41,241 nucleotides of DNA from positions 1 to 41,241 of the IMG/VR virus record IMGVR_UViG_3300037484_001808; one strand, written 5' to 3'. The stretch is from a virus (lineage: Duplodnaviria > Caudoviricetes). The notes beneath the pieces were generated by a model. It saw only the letters and a program-made list of their open reading frames with translations. It was not told the origin of the DNA and ran no database searches. Made by a program: the position numbers and the translations under genes. Below, piece after piece: positions 2,868 to 40,570 of the stretch (position 1 is its first letter; every line of letters begins with the position of its first letter).

Positions 2868-4562
2868 ATGCCATGGAACGATGACCGGCGATATCATATC
2901 ACCACCCCGGAGGCCCTCCAGAAAGCTCTGAAGGCCAGGAAGGCGAGGATTTTCAATCTCCAGGCCGTCAAGAGCGATCCCCAGCATATCCGTTACATCC
3001 CCGTCCCCCTCAAGCAAGCGGGGGTCTACGTCGACCATGACGTGGCCCTCCGCTTCTCCGCCGTCTTCCGGGCCGTCTGTTTCATCAGCCAGACGATCGC
3101 CTCTCTTCCTTGGGATATTCTGCTCGAAACTGCCATGAAGACCCAGAAACAAACAGGGCATCCCCTCTGGAAACTCCTCCGGACCCGGCCGAACCCGGAG
3201 ATGGGGGCTCAGTCTTTCCGGGAGACTCTCCTTGCTTGGGCTCTATCCTGGGGAAACGGTTACGCGGAGATCGAAAAAGACAAGACCGGGACCCCGGTCG
3301 CCCTCTGGCCGATCTCTCCCGACCGCGTGGAGGCCTACCGGGATCCGGAAAGCGGCAATATCCGGTATGACGTTTCCAATTATATGGGCGGGATTCAGAC
3401 AATGAGGCCGGAAAATCTCTTCCACCTTCACGGCCTGGGCTTCGACGGCCTGACCGGATATTCCGTCATCTCTTTTGCCTCCCGGTCCATCGGCCTGGGC
3501 ATGGCTGCCGAGGGCTATGCCGGCGATTTCTTCGCCAACGGGGCGATTTCAACAGGGGCGCTGAAGCATCCTAACACCCTGAGCGATCTCTCCCGGAAAA
3601 ATCTGCGCGAGAGCTGGGCGTCGATCATTCAGGGGGAGGGAAAGCGTTTCAACATCCCGATTTTCGAAGAAGGGATGGACTGGGTCAATCTTATGATCAA
3701 CCCTGAGGATGCCCAGCTCCTCTTGACCCGCGAGTTCCAGATCACGGATATCGCCCGCTGGTTCGGGCTTCCGCCCCACAAGCTGCAGGACCTCAGCCGG
3801 GCCACCTGGGGGAACATCGAGCACCTCTCGATCGAGGTGGTCAATGACGCCCTCATGCCCTGGATCATCCGCCTGGAGCAGGAGGCAGATTTCAAGCTCC
3901 TCCGCCCGACCGAAAAAGGCGTACGGACGAAGCTGAACGTCCGCGGCCTCCTACGTGGAGATGATAAATCCAGGTCGGAATACTACAAGATCATGCGGGA
4001 TATCGGCGTTTACAGCACAAATGACATCCGCCGTCTGGAAGATATGGACCCGGTGGGCCCCGAAGGTGATGAGTTGATCGTCCAGTTGAATCAGACGACG
4101 CTCAAAAAACTGGTCTCCGGAGAGGCCCCGGCGCCCAAGCCGGCGCCTCCCCTGCAGTCCTATAAAATGCTCATCCAGCATGCCTATGAGCGCATCCTGA
4201 AGAGGGAGATCGGCCAGTTTGAGCGGGACGGGGCCCCAAAAGGTGACTTTTCGGCCTGGTTCAACCAGTTTTTCGCGAAGGAGCGCGGCCGGATCGAGCA
4301 GGATATGGAGCCGATCGTCATGAGCCTGCTGTTGCAGATTGCGCCGCAAATCGAGATCAACGGGCAGATCCCGGAAATCCTCGCGGGATTTATCGATTGG
4401 CATATCGAGGCTTCCAGAAATGCATTTTCGGCCCCCCTGGCCGGCAAAGTGGACGAATTCTGCACTCCTGAACGGGTGAAAGAGGGCGCCAACCGCCTGA
4501 TCGAGGCGCTGGCGGCCATGGTCGTGGAGGCAAAGGAAAAACCCAATGCCCTACCCGAATGA
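2868..4562 (+). CDS. Portal protein, HK97 family, with ~150-aa C-terminal extension
   Basis: AVFRAVCFISQTIASLP, WGNGYAEI, IARWFGLPPHKL, LLRGD and NDIRRLEDM motifs. Confidence 0.95.
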   Translation: MPWNDDRRYHITTPEALQKALKARKARIFNLQAVKSDPQHIRYIPVPLKQAGVYVDHDVALRFSAVFRAVCFISQTIASLPWDILLETAMKTQKQTGHPLWKLLRTRPNPEMGAQSFRETLLAWALSWGNGYAEIEKDKTGTPVALWPISPDRVEAYRDPESGNIRYDVSNYMGGIQTMRPENLFHLHGLGFDGLTGYSVISFASRSIGLGMAAEGYAGDFFANGAISTGALKHPNTLSDLSRKNLRESWASIIQGEGKRFNIPIFEEGMDWVNLMINPEDAQLLLTREFQITDIARWFGLPPHKLQDLSRATWGNIEHLSIEVVNDALMPWIIRLEQEADFKLLRPTEKGVRTKLNVRGLLRGDDKSRSEYYKIMRDIGVYSTNDIRRLEDMDPVGPEGDELIVQLNQTTLKKLVSGEAPAPKPAPPLQSYKMLIQHAYERILKREIGQFERDGAPKGDFSAWFNQFFAKERGRIEQDMEPIVMSLLLQIAPQIEINGQIPEILAGFIDWHIEASRNAFSAPLAGKVDEFCTPERVKEGANRLIEALAAMVVEAKEKPNALPE

Positions 4563-5499
4563 GCATGCCTGAAGGCTGAAGGACCCCGGTCAGTATGACC
4601 GGTTCAGCCGTAAGAACTGCGATCGGAAGCACGACGGCAAATGCATCGATGCGATTTACGGCATAAAAGAGGACAAAGCCGATGTCCAAGCGTTGAGATA
4701 TCCCAAGGATATCTGGACCGAGGCCGCCGCCCACAAACATTGCAATTCCCTCGGCGGAACTTTTGAGGCGGCAAGCGAGGGATCGGAGGGTAATATGACC
4801 GGACGCGGATATTCCATCAAGGCAAAAGCGGCCGACGAGGCCGAGATCTGGATTTACGAGGAGATCGGCGAAGGCTGGTTCGGCGGGATCTCGGCGAATC
4901 AGTTTGCCAAGGATCTGAAGGCCCTGGGGGACCTCAAGAAGATCACTCTCCGCCTGAATTCCCCCGGCGGGGACGTTTTCGACGGGATGGCGATCTACAA
5001 CATCCTGAAGCAGCACAAGGCCAAGGTGACGGTGAACATCGACGGCCTGGCCGCCTCCATCGCTTCCGTCATCGCCATGGCCGGGGACGATATCCTCATC
5101 GCGGCCAACGCCATGATGATGATCCATGAGGCCTGGACCTATGCCGTCGGACCGGCCGAGGAGCTGCGCGCGGCCGCGGACATGATCGAAAAGGTGAACA
5201 GTACGATCGTGACCACCTATCTGACCCAGGCGTCGATCGACCAGGCCAAGATCCAGGAGCTCATGAAAAATGAAACCTGGATGACCGCAGATGAGGCGAT
5301 CGGCTACGGCCTGGCGGACAAACTGGCCGAGCCGGTCCAGGCGGCCGCCCATTTCGATCTTGCCAGGTTCAAATACCGCAATGTTCCCAAGGACAAGTTG
5401 GCGCCGGGGCCGCTGGAACGCCCCGCAGCGCTCAGGCAGAGGCTGGCGACAATGCAGATTGCCGTCAAGAAGATGAGGGCCGCTGGAACGCCCCGCTGA
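4546..5499 (+). CDS. ClpP-type (S14) prohead maturation protease; long form with an 83-aa N-terminal domain containing in-frame UGA (codon 9, candidate Sec), and short form from internal ATG 4795
   Basis: ClpP motifs LRLNSPGGDVFDG, GLAASIAS, MMIHEA and ETWMTADEAI. The frame is open from ATG 4546 (AAGGA upstream, overlapping the portal stop) except TGA 4570-4572. ATG 4795 has a GGAGG SD. Protease call high confidence, Sec extension moderate. Confidence 0.85.
4570..4609 (+). promoter_or_regulatory. In-frame UGA plus candidate bacterial SECIS element
   Basis: TGA-A-GGCTGAA-GGACC-CCGGTCA-GTA-TGACCGG-TTCAGCC: two perfect 7-bp stems, with the apical loop starting GU 21 nt after the UGA. Confidence 0.7.
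5407..5496 (+). repeat. Perfect 20-bp direct repeat GGGCCGCTGGAACGCCCCGC
   Basis: Copies at 5407-5426 and 5477-5496, read in different frames of the protease gene. Confidence 0.85.
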
Positions 5500-5525: not shown

Positions 5526-6965
5526 ATGGAACTCATGGTCTTTTTGGCAATGCTGGCGGGTCTCACCTACCGGATCTTTGCCGACGCCGGACCGCAGGAT
5601 GAAAAAATCAAAGAGCTGCAGGATAAACTTCTGGAGCTCAACGAACGTGCCCAGGTCCTCCAGGCGACCGCGGATGCGGAAAAGCGGTCTCTGAAGGAAG
5701 ATGAGGAAAAAGAGCTCAACGGGATCTTCGATCAGTTTGAAAAGATCGAGGAGGAGATCGAGCGGCGGAAGCTCATCGCATCCCAGACTCAGAAACTGAC
5801 CCAGAGCCAGGGCCGGCAGACCGCGGGCCAGATCCCGGATCCCCAGAACCGGGGAACGGACGGCCAGGATCCCCCCCCGCCCAGGCGGAGATCCTCCGGC
5901 GGTATCATCACCGTCGTGGAAGACCGCGGCAAATGGGGGTGGAAAAACCTTGGAGAATTTGCGTTGGCCACCCGGATTGCTTCCCGGCAGGGGGGAAGTA
6001 TCGACCCCCGCCTGGTCATGAATGCCCCGACGACCTATAGCCAGGAAGGGGCCGGCGAAGACGGCGGATTCGCGGTACCTCCGGATTTCCGGGCGGCGAT
6101 CTGGGAAAAAGTCCAGGGCGAGGATTCCCTTCTGGCCAGAACGGACCAGAACGTGACCAGCAAGAACAGCATGGTTCTTCCGGCCGACGAAACCACGCCC
6201 TGGGACGCGACGGGCGGGATTCAGGCCTATTTCGAGAGCGAGGCGGGGGCCCTCAATCAGAGCAAGATCGCCCTGAAGGAAAAAACGATCCGGCTGAACA
6301 AGCTGACCGCCCTGGTCCCGGTCACGGAGGAGCTTCTCGAGGACGCTCCGGGCCTGGATTCCTACCTGCGGAAAAAGGTCGGCGAGAAGATGGATTTCAA
6401 GCTGAACCTCAAGATCGTCCAGGGCGTGGGCGCCGGGGAGCCCCTGGGGATCCTCAATGCCGGTTCCCTGGTGAGCATTTCGAAGGAAACGGGCCAGGGG
6501 GCGGACACGATCATGGCCGAGAATATCAGCAAGATGTGGGCCCGGCTCTATGCCCCCCTCCGCAGGAACGCCGTCTGGCTGATCAACCAGGACATCGAAC
6601 CCCAACTCGACAGCATGAGCATCGCCGTAGGCACGGGCGGAGTCCCGGTTTACATGCCCGCCGGCGGCCTGGCGGATGCCCCCTTTGGCCGGCTGAAGGG
6701 CCGTCCCGTCATCCCGACGCAGGCCTGCGAAACCCTGGGCGACAAGGGCGACATCATCCTGGTGGCCTTGGAGCAGTATCTGACCGCCGTGAAAACGGGC
6801 GGAGTCAAAGCCGACGTGAGCATGCACCTCTGGTTCGACTACGCGGTCCTCGCGTACCGGTTCATCATCCGGATCGCCGGGCAGCCCTGGTGGAAGTCCT
6901 ACATCACCCCCAGGGACGGCAGCAATTACCTGTCCTGGGCGGTCACCCTGGATGAGCGCGCCTAG
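5526..6965 (+). CDS. Major capsid protein, HK97 fold, with N-terminal coiled-coil delta domain
   Basis: GAGEDGGFAVPPDF, VPVTEELLEDA, GVGAGEPLGILN and RLKGRPVI motifs; GAGGAG SD; follows the protease. Confidence 0.95.
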   Translation: MELMVFLAMLAGLTYRIFADAGPQDEKIKELQDKLLELNERAQVLQATADAEKRSLKEDEEKELNGIFDQFEKIEEEIERRKLIASQTQKLTQSQGRQTAGQIPDPQNRGTDGQDPPPPRRRSSGGIITVVEDRGKWGWKNLGEFALATRIASRQGGSIDPRLVMNAPTTYSQEGAGEDGGFAVPPDFRAAIWEKVQGEDSLLARTDQNVTSKNSMVLPADETTPWDATGGIQAYFESEAGALNQSKIALKEKTIRLNKLTALVPVTEELLEDAPGLDSYLRKKVGEKMDFKLNLKIVQGVGAGEPLGILNAGSLVSISKETGQGADTIMAENISKMWARLYAPLRRNAVWLINQDIEPQLDSMSIAVGTGGVPVYMPAGGLADAPFGRLKGRPVIPTQACETLGDKGDIILVALEQYLTAVKTGGVKADVSMHLWFDYAVLAYRFIIRIAGQPWWKSYITPRDGSNYLSWAVTLDERA

Positions 6966-7872: not shown

Positions 7873-8394
7873 ATGCCCCCTTATAATCTTTCAACGCGCG
7901 GGCGCATCGCCGATATTCACTCCGGACTCCGGGTGAATACGGGATCTCTCGCCAATGCGACCTATCTGCTTGGAGCCGGGAACACCCAGACGGAACTTTT
8001 TACGGTAAAAGGCCTGATCTGGGTCCGGCAGCTCTTCCTGGAGGTCCTGGTCGCCTGCTCGAACAATCTAACGCAGGTCCTTTTCAACTGCACCTTTACC
8101 ACACCCGTGATCGGCGTCAATTCGATGTGCGCGAAATGCGCGTCGATCGCCCAGCTCGGCCAGGGGGGAAGGATCGTCTGGCTCGGGGGGGCTGTTGCCA
8201 CGGCGGCCGTAATCACGGATTCTCCGGGCCTTTCCGACGTGTTGCCGGCCACCGGGCAGTTGGTCGGCGGGATTGATTTCGTCGGCTCGATCGGGATGCT
8301 CGCCTCCGACGCGGATCAGGCCAGCGGATCCGTAAAAGCGACGCTGCATTATTTCCCGTTGACGGAAGGCGCCTACGCCGAAGCCCTGCTGTAA
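7873..8394 (+). CDS. Hypothetical virion protein (possible decoration protein)
   Basis: AAGGAG SD, beta-rich, in head module; GC hairpin follows at ~8404-8436. Confidence 0.6.
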   Translation: MPPYNLSTRGRIADIHSGLRVNTGSLANATYLLGAGNTQTELFTVKGLIWVRQLFLEVLVACSNNLTQVLFNCTFTTPVIGVNSMCAKCASIAQLGQGGRIVWLGGAVATAAVITDSPGLSDVLPATGQLVGGIDFVGSIGMLASDADQASGSVKATLHYFPLTEGAYAEALL

Positions 8395-8448
8395 CCCTGA
8401 CGTGGCGGGAGCGGGCGGCAAACGGCCCGCCCCGCCGGGAGGACTCCA

Positions 8449-8655
8449 ATGGCAGTCGCTCTCGTAATGACCATTCAACGCTGGATCGGCCTCTCGACCG
8501 ATACCAAGCCCGAAGCCCCCGAGCGCATCGGTTCCACGTTCCATGAACTCGATACTGGGAAAAAATTCATCTGGGATGGCGATTCATGGGTCCAGGATGT
8601 TTCCATGGTCTACGCCGTTTACCAGGCCAGCCTGGGCATGCCGTCCGACAGCTGA
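8449..8655 (+). CDS. Small hypothetical virion-module protein
   Basis: GGAGG SD; GLSTDTKP...GSTFHELDTGKKFIWDG motif typical of small phage structural proteins. Confidence 0.65.
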   Translation: MAVALVMTIQRWIGLSTDTKPEAPERIGSTFHELDTGKKFIWDGDSWVQDVSMVYAVYQASLGMPSDS

Positions 8656-8668
8656 GAAACAAAGACAT

Positions 8669-9457
8669 TTGAACTCAAGTGAGAAGAAAAACTACCGAAT
8701 ATGGGCCCCCCCCTACCGGAATTGGTCCGGAGGAGTGCGGGTTCTTTACCGTCTGGCGGAACTGCTGCGTCAACGGGGGTTCGCCGCGACAATCAATGAA
8801 AAACCGGCCGGAGACGATTATGTGGCCGTCTATCCGGAGACGGTGAAGGAGATCAACCCCTGGGGAGCCCCCCACGTGGTGAGGTACCTCCTGCATAGAC
8901 CGGGCGTTGTCGGAGGGCCTAAATCGTATCCTAAAGGTGTTTTGAAGGTCTGGTACAACGGAATATTCCGTGGATCGGATATCGATCCGGTCCTGAACAT
9001 TCAGATCGTCGAGCTCGATCTCTTCAACCTGCAGGGAGTCGGGATCCGGGAAACCACTTCCACCTGGATCGGCAGGGCGGCAAGGTACGGGTACCAGAAG
9101 GGAAAACCGGTAGGAGAGACCATGATCGCCCATAACTGGCCCCCAACCCGAAAAGAAGTGGCTGACTTGCTCAAAAGGAGCAAAGTTCTCTACACCTACG
9201 AGCCATTCACCTCGTTGACCACGGAGGCGGCGCTTTGCGGTTGCCCCTCGGTGATCATGACGGATATGTCCAGGTATCCGATCAGCCGGAAGGAAATCGA
9301 GGGGCTCGGCTGGGATCCGCCTGGCGTGGGTTGGGGAATGGATGAAATTGATAAGGCCCGGGAGACCCTTCCCCGGGCATTGCCGGCCTATCTGGTGAAT
9401 GAAGAGCAGACCAAGGGACAATTGAGCGCTTTTATCGAAAAAACGCAGAGCATGTGA
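8669..9457 (+). CDS. Glycosyltransferase-like protein (GT-B fold)
   Basis: IWAPPY..SGGVRVLYRLAELL, VAVYPE, VVRYLL and EAALCGCPSV motifs; start uncertain (TTG 8669 vs ATG 8543). Confidence 0.75.
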   Translation: MNSSEKKNYRIWAPPYRNWSGGVRVLYRLAELLRQRGFAATINEKPAGDDYVAVYPETVKEINPWGAPHVVRYLLHRPGVVGGPKSYPKGVLKVWYNGIFRGSDIDPVLNIQIVELDLFNLQGVGIRETTSTWIGRAARYGYQKGKPVGETMIAHNWPPTRKEVADLLKRSKVLYTYEPFTSLTTEAALCGCPSVIMTDMSRYPISRKEIEGLGWDPPGVGWGMDEIDKARETLPRALPAYLVNEEQTKGQLSAFIEKTQSM

Positions 9458-9459
9458 AA

Positions 9460-9762
9460 ATGACCAAACGAACCCAGGCGGAAATCGGCGCGGAGTTGAT
9501 CAGACGATTAAAAAGGAAATGGAATAACGATGGCTGGATCGTCTGTGGGAAGAGGGGGCAAATCGGAAAGAGCCACCCCTCGGAAGTGGCGGACATCATG
9601 GCAAGGATGCCGGAACCGAAAATGCCCAATTTTTGCCGGATTGCCTGCGATGAAGCATTGAGGCGGATGGGCAGGCCTTTTGGCGCTGCCAAATACCTCG
9701 GCGTTTCCCCAAGTTATATTTTCAGAGGTTTGCGCAAGCCGGCGGGCAGAGGGAAAGACTGA
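9460..9762 (+). CDS. Small protein with C-terminal helix-turn-helix
   Basis: AAKYLGVSPSYIFRGL HTH-like segment; abuts both neighbours. Confidence 0.5.
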   Translation: MTKRTQAEIGAELIRRLKRKWNNDGWIVCGKRGQIGKSHPSEVADIMARMPEPKMPNFCRIACDEALRRMGRPFGAAKYLGVSPSYIFRGLRKPAGRGKD

Positions 9763-10362
9763 ATGGCCGGCGCGGAAATAAATGTCTGCATCCCCTTTGA
9801 CCCGGAGGCCAACCTGGGCCGGGAATACAACCGGCTGATGCGCGAGTCCCAGCGGGAGTGGGTACTCTTCCTGGATCATGATGCGTTGATCCTAAATCCC
9901 CATTGGCATTATCTCTGCAGGGAGGCCATTACCAGGGTTCCAGCGGCGGGGATTTTCACCGCCTTGACAGGGAACATCGGTTCATCCGCCCAGCTCCTGA
10001 AATGGGCCCCGTCTCCGCAGGATTCAATTCCGGCCCATCAAGAAATCGCCTTGAAACTCTGGCGAAAGAGAGGAACGGGCCTTACCGATATCACGGAGGA
10101 TTCGATTTCCGGCTTCTTCCTCCTGACCTCCCGGACCGCCTGGGAGAAAGCGGGGGGATTCCCGGAACCGGGTCTCTTCGGGGTGGATCGGGAGTACCGG
10201 CGGAGGGTTGTCGCCGCGGGCCTGCGGGTCTTCCGGATAGATGGAATTTACGTTTTCCATCTCCGCGACCGGTCCCGGGGATCCTGGATCCCGGGAATGA
10301 AGACCTCCAAGGAACTTTGGGATGAATATTCGGCCGCCAAGCGGGCGAGAGCCTCCCCTTGA
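9763..10362 (+). CDS. Glycosyltransferase family 2-like protein
   Basis: EWVLFLDHD (DxD), ISGFFLL..WEKAGGF, GVDREY and YVFH motifs. Confidence 0.85.
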   Translation: MAGAEINVCIPFDPEANLGREYNRLMRESQREWVLFLDHDALILNPHWHYLCREAITRVPAAGIFTALTGNIGSSAQLLKWAPSPQDSIPAHQEIALKLWRKRGTGLTDITEDSISGFFLLTSRTAWEKAGGFPEPGLFGVDREYRRRVVAAGLRVFRIDGIYVFHLRDRSRGSWIPGMKTSKELWDEYSAAKRARASP

Positions 10363-10413
10363 GGACATTATTCTTCTGCGGGGTCAGGTTGAGGGAGCGG
10401 AACAAGAGGGATT

Positions 10414-11193
10414 ATGAATTTTGAGCCAGGCAAGAAAATCGATGTCGTCTACCCCATGGCGCCCGTAGCCAAGGGGCCGGATGATTTCGAGCTCCGGTAT
10501 TCCCTCCGCTCCTTCGATTCCCAGACCTGGGCCGGCAACGTCTTCACTGTCGGGTATCGACCCCGCTGGTTGAAAAACGCCCAGCACATCGATTCCTCCG
10601 ATCAATGGCATCAAAACTTCAAGGATAAGAACATCATCAAGAAAATGCTGCGGGCCTGCGTGGACGGCCGGGTCAGCGACCCCTTCGTCGCCAATTCCGA
10701 TGATCAATATTGGCTGAAGCCGATCGGTCCGGATGACATGCTGATTCCCCCCCGGGAGAATCCGGCGCAGATGGATGTGGATCGTGCCTCGAAAATTCCG
10801 GGCCAGTTCCGCGCATGGCGGAACCAATGGGTGAAGCGCCAGTTCGAGACGATCGACTTCCTCAAAAAACAGGGTAAGTCCGATATCCCATTCGATGGCC
10901 ACGTGCCTTATCTGATCGATAAGGAGAGTTACCTCCGGACCATGGCCGAGATCCCCTGGGAGATGGGGAATGGGTTTCTCATAGTGGTCTACCACGGATA
11001 CAACTGGCAGAACGGCTTTCCGATCGAGTCCCGGGACGGAGTCCTGAAAAGAATCATAACCGAGATGAACTGCGCGGAAATCGAGGGCGTCACGGGAAAG
11101 GCCCTCTTTCTGAACCATAATAATAAAGGCCTGGGTCCGGGCATGCGGGAATTTCTGAAAAAACGGTTCCCGAATCCCTCGAGGTGGGAATGA
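10414..11193 (+). CDS. Stealth-like (sugar-1-phosphate transferase-like) protein
   Basis: IDVVYP, ELRYSLRS, FVANSDD and HVPYLIDK resemble Stealth conserved regions. Confidence 0.7.
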   Translation: MNFEPGKKIDVVYPMAPVAKGPDDFELRYSLRSFDSQTWAGNVFTVGYRPRWLKNAQHIDSSDQWHQNFKDKNIIKKMLRACVDGRVSDPFVANSDDQYWLKPIGPDDMLIPPRENPAQMDVDRASKIPGQFRAWRNQWVKRQFETIDFLKKQGKSDIPFDGHVPYLIDKESYLRTMAEIPWEMGNGFLIVVYHGYNWQNGFPIESRDGVLKRIITEMNCAEIEGVTGKALFLNHNNKGLGPGMREFLKKRFPNPSRWE

Positions 11194-27106: not shown

Positions 27107-27322
27107 TCATTGTTCATAGATGGTGCCGAAGGCGGGAATCGAACCCGCGTCCATCTCTTCTCCGTCTTCCATCTTGTCCCGACAATATTCGGAACAATAT
27201 TGCCTCCCAAGATAATCATTGAAAATTGGTATCGAGCGCATTGAGTACCGATCTTCAACCGAATGGAGATCACATCCACACCAATTACAGAGATACGCTA
27301 CTCGTTTGAATTTGTCAGCCAT
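27107..27322 (-). CDS. Small Cys-rich (zinc-finger-like) protein
   Basis: AAGGAG SD; CNWCGC and YCSEYC motifs; low GC. Confidence 0.6.
   Translation of the reverse strand: MADKFKRVAYLCNWCGCDLHSVEDRYSMRSIPIFNDYLGRQYCSEYCRDKMEDGEEMDAGSIPAFGTIYEQ
27121..27152 (-). other. tRNA-like 3' end fragment (T-arm + acceptor strand + CCA; tRNA-Leu/tmRNA-like)
   Basis: Minus strand GGACGCGGGTTCGATTCCCGCCTTCGGCACCA; no matching 5' half seen nearby. Confidence 0.65.
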
Positions 27323-27340: not shown

Positions 27341-27522
27341 CAGAAGGCTTTTAAATTTTTCCTACATGGAATTCATTACACAAAACGGAACAGAAGGCTT
27401 TCAAAATACAAATAATTCCGCGATGATATCGGCCTTTCACGCCGGTAACCGGGGTTCGAATCCCCGTGGGGACGCCAACTTACGAGAGACCAAAAGCCTT
27501 CAGCAGATTTTAGAAGGCTTTT
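27341..27522. repeat. GAAGGCTTT repeats around attP (candidate integrase arm sites; right pair forms a terminator hairpin)
   Basis: CAGAAGGCTTT at 27341 and 27391; inverted AAAAGCCTTC at 27492-27501 and GAAGGCTTTT at 27513-27522. Confidence 0.65.
27428..27477 (+). other. attP: attP core: 3' portion of tRNA-Glu(TTC)
   Basis: TCGGC-CTTTCAC-GCCGG anticodon arm, TAAC, CGGGG-TTCGAAT-CCCCG T-arm, TGGGGAC-G-CCA. No D-arm or 5' acceptor strand. Lies 22 bp from the integrase stop. Confidence 0.9.
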
Positions 27523-28498
27523 TCAAGAGCTCCAGGGCCTCCTTCAGATCCCCCATCCTTTTGAGGTACCTTTCCGTCACCGCCAGGCTGCGATGCCTCA
27601 GGATCTGGCTGATCACCACCATGGGAACATCCCCCTGGGCGAGGACTGACGCCGACAGGTGCCGAATGGCGTGGAATCCGAAATGCCGCACTTTCGCCTT
27701 TCCACAGAGTTTTTTCATCACGTGGATGCGGTAACGGTATTGCCCTCCCCCGGGGGCCGGGAAAACCCACTCTCCGGCCACGAAATCCCGGTGGGCCTCA
27801 AGGGATTGCCGGAGATCCTCCGTCATTGGCAGCCAATCCGCCGCCAATGAGCCGTCCTTGCGCTTTCTGGTCAAGAGCCTTACCATTCCCCTCCCCCAGT
27901 CCAGATCGTCCCATCGCAGCCTGAACAGCTCTGATCTCCGGGCCGCCAGGTGGAGGTAGGCGAGGAGCATGGTCTTATCCTGTCCTTGGGCAATCTCGTG
28001 GACCCTCCAGAAGTCCTCCTCCGGGGGGATATACCGCGCTTGGCGCTCCTCCGGGAACTTTTCGCAAACGGCGACGCATGGGTTGATGATGCCCTTGTAC
28101 CGGGCAAGCCAGGAGAAAAAGGCCAGGAGGTTCTTCCGGTCCTTGTTCGCGGCATAGCCGGACCTCCGGGAAAACTGCTCCTGGAGGTACATCCTGATTG
28201 TATCCGGCTCAATCTTCTGGAGAACGGCCTGGGGATCGACGTGCTGCAGGAATCGTTTAAAAAGATCGCGCTTCTCGGCGAAGACCTTCTGAGCGTGCTT
28301 TGCCTCGGAGAATCCCAGGTAGTCATTTGCCATGCTTAGGAGCGAGGAGGTGGAACGGGTCCGCCATTTTCCCGCGGGAATGTCTTTCTGATCCGATTCC
28401 CAGGAGATCGCATCCGCTTTCAGGGTGAAGACCTTCTGGATTCTCCGCGTCCCCTCCCGGACCTGGCCGATCCATTGCCTTCCCTTTTTCCAGGGCAT
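27500..28498 (-). CDS. int: Tyrosine recombinase / integrase
   Basis: ARRSEL (R), FHAIRH (HxxR), LRH and TERY (Y); GAGGT SD; next to attP. Confidence 0.95.
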   Translation of the reverse strand: MPWKKGRQWIGQVREGTRRIQKVFTLKADAISWESDQKDIPAGKWRTRSTSSLLSMANDYLGFSEAKHAQKVFAEKRDLFKRFLQHVDPQAVLQKIEPDTIRMYLQEQFSRRSGYAANKDRKNLLAFFSWLARYKGIINPCVAVCEKFPEERQARYIPPEEDFWRVHEIAQGQDKTMLLAYLHLAARRSELFRLRWDDLDWGRGMVRLLTRKRKDGSLAADWLPMTEDLRQSLEAHRDFVAGEWVFPAPGGGQYRYRIHVMKKLCGKAKVRHFGFHAIRHLSASVLAQGDVPMVVISQILRHRSLAVTERYLKRMGDLKEALELLKKPSKIC

Positions 28499-34955: not shown

Positions 34956-35343
34956 CGAAATCAGACGGGCACTGGAAAAGGAAGGCGAGCTGCCTGCGAG
35001 AACCATGCCCGGAAGGCCCAAAAAGGAGAAAAAGAAAATGGCGCATGCTAGAGAATTTTGCAAAAATCACCCGGAGCGGGCGGTCATGAAAGCGAAGAGC
35101 GGCCGCCCGATGGGATTATGTCCGGAGTGTATAAAAGAAGCCCGCATTAAAGGGGTGAAAAATCGGATGGCGAAAACGGGGAAAACTCCGCGGACCATTC
35201 TCAAGGCGTCTCAAGGCGTCTCAAGGCGTCTCAAGGCGCCGACAGCGGCCGCTCCGGAGATACCCGACAAGCCCCGCCTGGTCCTGGCTGAAACCTTCCC
35301 TTGTCCCAGCTGCGGCGCGCAGCTGATGATCGAGAGGGGGTGA
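34942..35343 (+). CDS. Basic Cys-rich hypothetical protein
   Basis: AGGAGG SD; CKNH..CPEC and CPSC motifs. Confidence 0.65.
   Translation: MLTVDEIRRALEKEGELPARTMPGRPKKEKKKMAHAREFCKNHPERAVMKAKSGRPMGLCPECIKEARIKGVKNRMAKTGKTPRTILKASQGVSRRLKAPTAAAPEIPDKPRLVLAETFPCPSCGAQLMIERG
35199..35238 (+). repeat. Tandem repeat (TCTCAAGGCG)x4
   Basis: Four perfect 10-bp units inside ORF 34942-35343. Confidence 0.95.
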
Positions 35344-38812: not shown

Positions 38813-40570
38813 ATGAAGACCATTCACCTTGGAGATAGCCTCGATCTGCCGCTCGACTTTGTAACCCAGACACAGGCAATCCTCGCGAAGAGAGGCGCGG
38901 GGAAAAGCTACTGCGCATCGGTTCAAGCGGAGGAGATGCTGAAGGCCGGCCAACAGGTCGTGGTAGTGGATCCCACGGGCGGCTGGTGGGGACTCAAGAG
39001 CTCGGCCGATGGTAAGCATCCGGGGTTCTCCATCGTCATTTTTGGAGGAGAACATCCGGACGTTCCCCTCGAGGAGCATGCCGGAGAAATCGTCGCTTCC
39101 GCAATCATCGAGCACAGGTTCAGCGCCATCCTGGATCTTTCCCTCTTCCGCAAGGGCCAGATGACCAGGTTCATGGGCCCATTCCTTGAGGCCCTTTACC
39201 GCCTGAACCGAGAAGCTATGCACCTGATCGTCGACGAGGCAGACGCGATCGCCCCGCAGCGCCCATTCTCCGATGAGGCCCGGACCCTGGGCGCTATGGA
39301 AGACGTGGTCCGCCGCGGCCGGAAGCGCGGGATCGGATGCACCATGATCAGCCAGCGGCCGGCCGTCCTGAACAAGAACGTCCTCACCCAGGCCCAGATT
39401 CTATGCGCGCTGAGACTGGTCCACCCCAAGGACATAAACGCCATCGAGGAGTGGGTCGACGTCCATGGCGATCAGGAACGGGCCAAGGAGATGATTGCCT
39501 CCCTGCCCTCGCTTCCGATCGGTACCGCCTGGTTCTGGTCCCCCGGATGGGGGGATATCTTCACCAAGGTGAAAATCCGGAAGAGGGAAACCTTCGACTC
39601 CTCGGCAACCCCGGAGGTTGGAAAGGCCGCGGTGAGACCCGCGGTCCTGGCCCCGATAGACATCGGGAAACTCGGTTCCCAGATACAGGCGACGGTCCAG
39701 AAGGCCAAGGAGAACGATCCCCAGGCGCTGCGCCGGCGGATTGCCGACCTGGAGCGCCAGCTTAAACAGGCCCCGGCGAAGATGGACAATGCGGCCCTGC
39801 AGGAGGCGGTCCAGGCAGCCTTGAGAGAGAAAGAAAGGGAATTCCGCGAGCAGTCCAAATCCATCTGGAAAATCATTGTGGACCAACAGAATTCCTTGGG
39901 CAAGATCAAGGAGGAAGCCGAAAGATCCAGGGGGTTCATGTCTCCAATAGAAACCGAAACTGTAAGGGCAAACGAAGTATTCAGCAAAAATTTCCCTCAT
40001 ATGGCCAAAGCGGCGGGTATCTCAGCTGGCAAGTCTGAAGCCTTTCTCGATCGGGTTACTACCTATACCAAGGCAGATAGTCGAGTGGTTCCCACCAATG
40101 GTAAGCTGCGCGCCGGCGCCGAGAGAATGCTGGCCGCTTTGGTCCAGTGGTACCCCGCCGGCATGAAAGAAGGCCAGATGAGATCTCACGCCGGCCTCCG
40201 GAAGAGCGGAACCTTCTCGACCTATATGTCCGATCTGCGATCCCGCGGATTCATCGAATTCCGCGATGGCGAAATCTTCGCCACCCAGTCTGGGCGTCGG
40301 TATTACGGGAATAACCCGCCGCCGGCGCCGGCGACCACTCAAGAGGTCATGGCCATCTGGGAACCCAAGCTGAGGGGAGGGGCCCGGCGGATACTCCAAA
40401 TACTGGTAAATTATCAAGGCAAGGCAATCCCCCTGGCCGAGCTGGCCGAGGCCTCCGGCCTGACCCGATCGGGAACATTCTCCACATACTTATCAGACTT
40501 GCGCACCGCCAGGCTGATCACCACCGGCGCCGGAGTTGCCCGGGCAAACAAGGAAACACTATTTCTTTAA
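38813..40570 (+). CDS. HerA/FtsK-like (DUF87) ATPase with coiled coil and two C-terminal wHTH-like repeats
   Basis: Walker A AKRGAGKS, VVDPTG, Walker B LIVDEAD, RRGRKRG and ISQRP; duplicated SGTFSTY(M/L)SDLR. Confidence 0.88.
   Translation: MKTIHLGDSLDLPLDFVTQTQAILAKRGAGKSYCASVQAEEMLKAGQQVVVVDPTGGWWGLKSSADGKHPGFSIVIFGGEHPDVPLEEHAGEIVASAIIEHRFSAILDLSLFRKGQMTRFMGPFLEALYRLNREAMHLIVDEADAIAPQRPFSDEARTLGAMEDVVRRGRKRGIGCTMISQRPAVLNKNVLTQAQILCALRLVHPKDINAIEEWVDVHGDQERAKEMIASLPSLPIGTAWFWSPGWGDIFTKVKIRKRETFDSSATPEVGKAAVRPAVLAPIDIGKLGSQIQATVQKAKENDPQALRRRIADLERQLKQAPAKMDNAALQEAVQAALREKEREFREQSKSIWKIIVDQQNSLGKIKEEAERSRGFMSPIETETVRANEVFSKNFPHMAKAAGISAGKSEAFLDRVTTYTKADSRVVPTNGKLRAGAERMLAALVQWYPAGMKEGQMRSHAGLRKSGTFSTYMSDLRSRGFIEFRDGEIFATQSGRRYYGNNPPPAPATTQEVMAIWEPKLRGGARRILQILVNYQGKAIPLAELAEASGLTRSGTFSTYLSDLRTARLITTGAGVARANKETLFL

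Follow-up and report, generated by a model that had tools for sequence, protein, structure and literature searches.

Bacterial selenoproteins, for which 119 prokaryotic families are given in Table 1 of a review from 2026, are mostly known as redox enzymes (PMC13188914), and among viruses, the glutathione peroxidases of molluscum contagiosum and fowlpox represent selenoproteins of poxviruses (PMC8310308). In this study, a tailed-phage record of 41,241 nt (IMG/VR: IMGVR_UViG_3300037484_001808), referred to as the window in its full length, was analyzed with a focus on the gene of a ClpP-type head maturation protease carrying an in-frame UGA at codon 9 (positions 4570–4572, plus strand). As deduced from the sequence of the window and its homologs, this codon is likely decoded as selenocysteine (Sec) by the machinery of the host.

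The gene shares several features with bacterial selenoprotein genes, namely an in-frame UGA aligned to cysteine (Cys) in homologs, a hairpin located within the coding region, and, likely, an anaerobic deltaproteobacterial context. The hairpin resembles a bacterial Sec insertion sequence (bSECIS) by its 3-nt loop beginning with GU, its upper stem of 7 bp, a distance of 20 nt between UGA and loop, and a folding energy below −7.5. In contrast to bacterial selenoproteins, the gene is phage-encoded, its Sec-bearing module is attached to head-assembly proteins, the module features neither a thioredoxin fold nor a CxxU-type motif, and Sec is predicted at either of two columns that are 57 residues apart. 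No such family is contained in Table 1 of the review mentioned, and its main text is free of the words phage, virus, and viral (PMC13188914). Dependence on the host Sec machinery would be shared with the poxvirus selenoproteins; however, these are captured cellular antioxidant enzymes with a eukaryotic SECIS, whereas the module in the window is specific to viruses, belongs to morphogenesis, and has a predicted SECIS of the bacterial type. Compared to ClpP-related head proteases (NF045542, PHROG 94/133), residues ~87–262 of the window protein pass NF045542 and the gene is located between portal and capsid genes, but the window gene additionally carries a predicted Sec module at the N-terminus, present only conditionally, and a second start, likewise predicted. 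No phage selenoprotein and no selenoprotein of virion assembly was found in the literature, the supplements of large screens and subscription journals lying outside the scope of the search. Decoding of this kind is established; what appears to be new is its employment in an assembly module specific to phages.

UGA at a Conserved Cysteine Column

The gene in question (4546–5499, plus strand) encodes 317 amino acids if the UGA is read through, consisting of an accessory domain of ~78 residues (PYPNEH module, 4546–4779) followed by the protease. A Shine–Dalgarno-like AAGGA (4533–4537), still within the last part of the portal gene, precedes the start codon of the long product (ATG 4546). The beginning of the gene overlaps the stop codon of the portal gene (TGA 4560–4562), and the frame is open from codon 9 to TGA 5497–5499. 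All coordinates claimed in the original prediction for these elements, as well as for the hairpin stems and loop, were correct.

Homologs of residues 1–78 carry Cys at the UGA column almost without exception. Among the best 120 of 122 proteins, 118 have Cys at column 9, one has Ala, and one is unaligned there; column 66 is likewise occupied by Cys in 118. The PYPNEHxCRL motif named in the original prediction is real, and the expected Cys column withstood a comparison that could have refuted it. At the nucleotide level, the best 80 of 303 viral loci feature TGC (46), TGT (28), or TGA (6) at column 9, one of the six TGA loci being identical to the window. Of the matches to a TGA pattern, a hidden Markov model built from the Cys proteins confirmed 24 of 25 from viruses and 37 of 68 from metagenomes as true homologs. 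For the same pattern with TGC or TGT, 120 loci each were taken, of which 120 and 117, respectively, were true; since the totals are estimated at ~550 and ~350, the 24 TGA forms make up ~2–3% of the pattern-matching viral stretches.

Matches below 60 bits or with less than 60 nt of downstream sequence were dropped, and clustering at 90% identity resulted in 29 TGA and 229 Cys clusters. The TGA clusters are 32–89% identical to each other (median pairwise identity 55%). In a tree of the 29 TGA clusters and 29 matched Cys relatives, 20 changes are needed, and a single TGA clade was rejected (approximately unbiased test, p-AU = 3e-53); the alignment comprises only ~75 columns, and Sec gain is indistinguishable from Sec loss. 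The UGA therefore is no peculiarity of this genome, so that the original prediction withstood a second comparison that could have refuted it, and predicted Sec forms as well as Cys forms occur in several lineages. A search of cultured phages gave eight records, all below 60% identity. A search of representative proteins mainly picked up the protease portion of the profile and added nothing. Record L001 is identical to the window over 3420 nt, and its source may be common; its end (3415–3444) is a 30-nt inverted copy of window positions 4902–4931, probably an assembly artefact. Contigs from two DNA runs leave window positions 4536–4756 uncovered.

A SECIS-Like Hairpin Accompanies the UGA

Downstream of the UGA, GGCTGAA (4574–4580) pairs with TTCAGCC (4603–4609), and CCGGTCA (4586–4592) pairs with TGACCGG (4596–4602) around a GTA loop (4593–4595) with its G at +21, giving a predicted bacterial SECIS at 4574–4609. 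Both stems pair as originally proposed; conservation across homologs is confined to the upper one, and the lower one is peculiar to the window genome. The hairpin folds with −20.9 kcal/mol (z = −3.14; 2 of 200 shuffles were as stable), and none of 200 synonymous resamplings of the window was as stable over +10 to +39 (p = 0.005). Since a hairpin of the same class accompanies 33 of the 1258 TGA triplets of the window in any frame, the single locus is suggestive only, and the case has to be made from the homologs.

A perfect stem of at least 6 bp with a G-starting loop at +19 to +24 was found in 17 of 29 TGA clusters vs. 2 of 229 Cys clusters, the numbers expected from synonymous resampling being 0.4 and 0.8, respectively. 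At equal GC content, the median energy over +10 to +39 is −8.7 for TGA and −3.6 for Cys clusters, and the TGA form is more stable than its matched near Cys relative in 26 of 29 cases (p = 1e-7). GU at +21/22 occurs in 24 of 29 TGA vs. 49 of 227 Cys clusters, and Gln at codon +7 is written CAG in 19 of 19 TGA vs. 12 of 26 Cys clusters. Compensatory changes were determined for 17 of the 29 clusters (plus strand, gap-free alignment, structure taken from the window): two-sided changes were observed at five of the seven pairs (11 cells), and 89% were paired, compared to 12–53% in slid controls. The covarying hairpin in independent TGA phages, which the original prediction had named as a check, therefore exists and goes with TGA rather than Cys.

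The published bSECIS model demands a loop of 3–9 nt with G in its first two positions, a stem of 4–16 bp, a distance of 16–37 nt from the UGA, and a minimum free energy ≤ −7.5 (PMC13188914). With its GUA loop at +21, 7 bp, and −10.1 for the upper stem, the window passes a permissive version of this model, in agreement with the bacterial SECIS predicted beforehand. For column 9, 28 of 29 TGA clusters and also 89 of 245 Cys clusters pass this version. An argument on Sec versus Cys based on the loop G has also been used for hydrogenases (PMC13582414). An Rfam scan of the window gave no match.

The Cys locus L004 (3022–3066) has TGC at column 9 together with a complete 7-bp G-loop hairpin, and L005 carries a version with one mismatch. 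Judged by their sequences, they may either have reverted recently from Sec to Cys or be Cys forms that are pre-adapted to Sec.

A Second UGA Column and Paired Cysteines

Across 291 distinct domain DNA sequences, all in-frame stops are TGA, 38 of them at column 9, which had been selected for, and five at column 66, which had not. TAA, TAG, and stops at other columns are absent from these sequences, even at the TGG codon of Trp57. A targeted scan for TGA at column 66 resulted in 14 true matches out of 24, all with Cys at column 9, bringing the column-66 forms to eight clusters in total. TGA at both columns was seen in no sequence. In the window, this second column is Cys66 (4741–4743).

In 240 proteins including an Ala9 subfamily, Cys9 and the C-terminal Cys are both present in 122, single in one and six, both absent in 108, and unaligned in three. 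Column 9 is Cys or Ala in these proteins, never Trp. The partner Cys has moved off column 66 in six proteins, to near column 72 in the five listed, and the listed forms with a relocated partner have no His65, which favors a covalent bond over a His/Cys metal site. From this covariation, we infer a bond between Sec9 and Cys66. Cys25 (4618–4620) and Cys33 (4642–4644) are jointly present in 66 of the 240 proteins, jointly absent in 174, and single in none. The grouping of Sec9 with C25, C33, and C66 in the original prediction consequently holds as far as the presence of all three residues in the window protein is concerned; the likely partner is Cys66 alone, with C25/C33 being a separate optional pair.

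Two further observations concern these columns. Locus L091 (3001–3240) combines TGA at column 9 with Val at column 66, a Cys near column 72 like the relocated-partner forms, and a weak hairpin. Proteins P0139–P0257 represent a large Cys-free (Ala9) subfamily of the module residing on many phage head proteins.

Placement of the Module and a Predicted Second Start

In the window protein, the protease scored 220.7 bits with NF045542 (cut-off 120) and matched PF00574 at residues 87–262; together with the location of the gene between portal and capsid, this assigns it to the NF045542 head maturation proteases. The domain had been described as a prohead protease N-domain, which is true for its N-terminal position on a ClpP-type protease in the window; in general, it is a mobile module of several head proteins and not ClpP-specific. 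Among 120 proteins, it is N-terminal in 69, internal in 48, and C-terminal in three, on HK97-type, ClpP, S49, Mu-like, and XkdF head proteases. Scanning of 34 flanking stretches revealed a protease in 16 (five ClpP, eight S78, and three S49), only a capsid protein in three, a portal protein in one, and nothing in 14. The portal case is L082 (3018–4598, minus strand), where the Sec module forms the C-terminal end of the portal protein and is not part of a protease.

TGA forms are restricted in their placement. In the 36 TGA clusters with enough flank, the module is N-terminal in 32, internal but ending the open reading frame (ORF) in two, and unplaced in two; an internal placement with continuing sequence was found in 0 of 36 TGA vs. 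107 of 226 Cys clusters. Behind an N-terminal, continuing domain, a Shine–Dalgarno-like word with an in-frame ATG occurs in 21 of 31 TGA vs. 28 of 95 Cys clusters (p = 2e-4, uncorrected for kinship). In the window, GGAGG (4785–4789) precedes an in-frame ATG (4795–4797, M84), which the original prediction had missed while being supported in its Sec candidate, Cys column, and hairpin. From this predicted second start, a protease lacking the domain would be made. Codons 9 and 84 of the window gene have no ATG between them, and initiation at the TTG of codon 50 could yield no more than a fragment.

As TGA forms are never found in the middle of a protein ahead of essential sequence and a second start is frequent, the protease is likely independent of recoding. 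Failed recoding is common for Sec in eukaryotic mRNAs (PMC8310308), and the placements suggest that the UGA is tolerated only where failure costs the domain and not the protease. The proposal of Sec in a head maturation protein accordingly stands insofar as the UGA lies in its gene, with the qualification that Sec is probably dispensable for making the protease, which could start at ATG 4795. Use of this start is itself a prediction from the sequence and less certain than Sec recoding.

Predicted Fold of the Accessory Domain

An AlphaFold2 model of the domain (Cys at position 9, alignment of 61 rows; mean predicted local distance difference test 89.9) features strands at 6–10, 19–29, 32–41, and 44–53, a helix at 59–68, and a strand at 72–74. 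The window domain has no PHROG, NCBIfam, or PDB-sequence match, Foldseek returned nothing from the PDB at E ≤ 0.001 for the model, and matches in BFVD were phage head proteins or unnamed entries only. The top VIA match was the BRX structure 6l0v_A (root mean square deviation 3.3 over 50 residues; Foldseek E 2.0); a BRX domain combines a three-stranded sheet with a helix and binds a peptide. On rescan, 19 of a further 120 relatives listed, members of the other (Ala9) subfamily, pass the gathering score of the BRX profile PF08381, among them one Cys9 form (P0235). In contrast to BRX domains (PF08381; PDB 6L0V), the window protein (P0002) itself does not match PF08381 at E ≤ 1, and hence not at the gathering score, and its domain features extra N- and C-terminal strands and a Cys/Sec pair. 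By transitivity only, the core of the domain is weakly suggested to be BRX-like.

BRX is a protein-interaction domain, which in plants binds LAZY CCL peptides (PMC10823791). In view of this function and the structural match, the module may be a docking domain stapled by Sec9–Cys66, both steps being conjectural. No paper linking BRX domains to phages was found, subscription journals lying outside the scope of the search.

Probable Provenance of the Sec Machinery and Probable Host

The assumption that the phage itself does not encode the Sec machinery is in agreement with the lack of a tRNA in the window and of any Sel family among the 53 proteins scanned; five TGA phage records likewise contain no tRNA-Sec above the cut-off. 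The window is a complete virus record and contains no host DNA. Its host was placed by means of an attP-like 3' half of tRNA-Glu(TTC) (27,430–27,478, plus strand) and a tyrosine integrase (27,500–28,498, minus strand), both used for this purpose only. A second short tRNA-end-like stretch is located at 27,120–27,150 (minus strand).

Among 120 integrase relatives listed, six have an organism name, five being deltaproteobacterial and one belonging to the Clostridiaceae (47–52% identity). In the phylum of a Desulfobacterales metagenome-assembled genome (MAG), integrase matches at E ≤ 1e-70 were found in 8 of 401 genomes, and seven of the eight adjoin a tRNA-Glu gene, compared to 0 of 201 genomes in a control phylum centered on a Ruminococcaceae MAG. 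The tRNA-Glu half agrees with the best integrase-relative genome in 43 of 49 nt; other searches for it gave 0 of 5, 0 of 21 by BLAST, and 1 of 5 at three mismatches. The five best integrase-relative genomes encode selB in five and selA in four cases. The PYPNEH domain itself was found twice in the 401 genomes, in neither case with a stop.

One further TGA phage, L098 (record G409), is a provirus with host-type genes in its flank. A cysteine synthase fused to a cysteinyl-tRNA synthetase is encoded in this flank (L469: 1114–3489). The fusion was detected at 67–72% in 10 of the 401 genomes of the first phylum and in 0 of 201 of the control, and selA exceeded the cut-off in four of the five best proxy genomes. 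Because only two phyla were sampled at scale, host placement is by proxy; a member of the Desulfobacterota possessing selA and selB is probably the host. The deltaproteobacterial group has been described as one of the most selenoprotein-rich (PMC13188914).

Explanation of the UGA and Its Alternatives

The location of the UGA at a conserved Cys column and its recurrence with the same hairpin in dozens of diverged phages argue for its decoding as selenocysteine. The phage would borrow SelA, SelB, SelD, and tRNA-Sec from an anaerobic, probably desulfobacterotal host, whose SelB would bind the G-loop so that tRNA-Sec is inserted at the UGA. Two products would result, namely a plain ClpP-type head protease from ATG 4795 and a longer form, in which the small N-terminal Sec domain is closed by a selenium–sulfur bond between Sec9 and Cys66. 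As a BRX-like docking module, this domain would ride into the prohead on a protease, a capsid fusion, or a portal protein.

Continued reading past the UGA competes with the possibility that it is a true stop, by which a dispensable domain is switched off through pseudogenization or reduction to an 8-residue leader, the protease being made from ATG 4795 only. TGC or TGT turns into TGA by one change, the TGA forms are scattered over the tree, and they occur only where loss is harmless, all of which fits such a stop. However, the domain downstream of the UGA is under purifying selection: for columns 21–78 in seven disjoint pairs from 37 distinct TGA sequences, pS was 0.60, pN 0.051, and the ratio of nonsynonymous to synonymous substitution rates (dN/dS) 0.044, and all 37 share R10, P14, Q48, R51, A62, and F73 without exception. 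The covarying hairpin and the absence of any TAA, TAG, or stop elsewhere in the domain likewise contradict decay, rendering a true stop very unlikely. Somewhat less improbable, but still unlikely, is programmed leaky readthrough without selenium, where the hairpin promotes decoding by near-cognates (Trp or Cys) and determines how much of the long form is made relative to the short one. The second start makes the long form optional, the +4 base is C or A in 29 of 29 column-9 clusters, and some TGA clusters have no clear G-loop, as would be expected for leakiness. Against this, the +4 base is fixed by an invariant Arg codon in Cys forms too, the stops are only TGA and only at two conserved Cys columns, column 9 is never Trp in the 240 proteins, and loop G and spacing fit the bacterial SECIS model (PMC13188914).

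Recoded phages exist, and an in-frame TGA in an otherwise intact gene would also be explained by an altered code, in which UGA means Trp, Gly, or Cys throughout phage or host. This is already contradicted by the regular use of TGA as terminator in the phage, where it closes 19 of 35 annotated genes, including those of the portal and the small terminase (none of the 19 with a G-loop stem above 4 bp), and Trp is written TGG 210 times vs. one in-frame TGA. Trp is also TGG in 41 of 41 cases in TGA-form domains, and TGA ends 76 of 180 long ORFs in other TGA loci, so that a changed code is hardly credible. A sequencing or assembly error, for which one base between TGA and TGC/TGT would suffice, is scarcely tenable in view of TGA with matching hairpins in 28 other clusters and the 7-bp G-loop stem of the window that is typical of TGA forms; the identical record L001 points the same way, its source possibly being the same.

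Several results weigh against Sec decoding or against parts of the scheme built on it. The strict hairpin test is failed by 12 of 29 TGA clusters, and L123, L091, L100, and L097 have no clear G-loop at +21, while the Cys cluster L004 carries the full hairpin. The permissive bSECIS version also admits the Cys controls mentioned above, and at column 66, where 6 of 8 TGA clusters pass compared to 80 of 253 controls, the contrast is modest (p = 0.017). The Fisher tests ignore kinship, and a tree-based test of independent pairs rested on three supported pairs and had no power. In GTDB representatives, 0 of 15 matches of the TGA-pattern search were true, all being due to chance. Regarding the host, none of 301 genomes matches the tRNA-Glu half exactly, and the integrase relatives are only 42–57% identical. 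For the most part, the Cys9/Cys66 covariation reflects a division into two subfamilies, the domain has neither a Pfam match nor a redox-enzyme motif, and with Z 4.4, which is within 1 of unrelated rows, its resemblance to the BRX fold is weak.

Given Sec, its role as a structural selenium–sulfur staple has about an even chance. In a strongly reducing cytoplasm, such a staple would hold better than a disulfide. A function as metal ligand is conceivable at roughly half that weight, and a catalytic or sensing redox center appears less likely still. If Sec insertion is true, the module represents a selenoprotein family of bacteriophages and virion assembly, and Sec would be extended beyond redox enzymes to a probably structural role. 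The ~20 inferred switches, the two alternative sites, and the Cys form with a ready hairpin would provide a natural experiment on the origin of Sec from Cys. Phage gene expression would be tied to a host trait, for which reason UGA plus SECIS could help to predict hosts. Gene callers drop the domain in TGA-form genomes, as the original prediction had stated for this ORF. A more far-reaching and rather doubtful proposal is that temperate phages of anaerobes repeatedly made selenoproteins of a virus-specific domain of head assembly, with Sec taking one or the other end of a single Cys–Cys bond, the gene being arranged such that host selenium supply decides on the domain content of the prohead. 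In this case, selenium would be present in virions, and the selenium and redox state of the host would modulate how capsids mature or how stable they are.

Neighboring Genes and Further Observations

The window encodes functions typical of a temperate tailed phage, i.e., terminases, portal, ClpP-type protease, capsid, tail, integrase, ParB, HerA, and HNH. The protease gene is flanked by the portal gene upstream (2868–4562, plus strand; PF04860) and the major capsid gene downstream (5526–6965, plus strand; PF05065). An antisense ORF (4390–5352) was considered as a cause of the TGA and rejected, its frame being open in only 14 of 29 TGA and 71 of 227 Cys clusters.

Another Sec candidate with an 8-bp G-loop stem (35,289–35,333), in frame just before the ParB ORF, was taken as chance in view of the 33 TGA triplets passing the same test; it overlaps a Cys-rich ORF in another frame. 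A HerA-like ATPase adjoins a replication initiator at 38,813–40,570, and anti-phage HerA models matched weakly, below the cut-off. Five mostly unannotated genes are located between the capsid and head–tail connector genes (7873–11,193), including a glycosyltransferase-like gene (9763–10,362) and a weakly Stealth-like ORF (10,414–11,193), which makes glycosylation of the virion possible.

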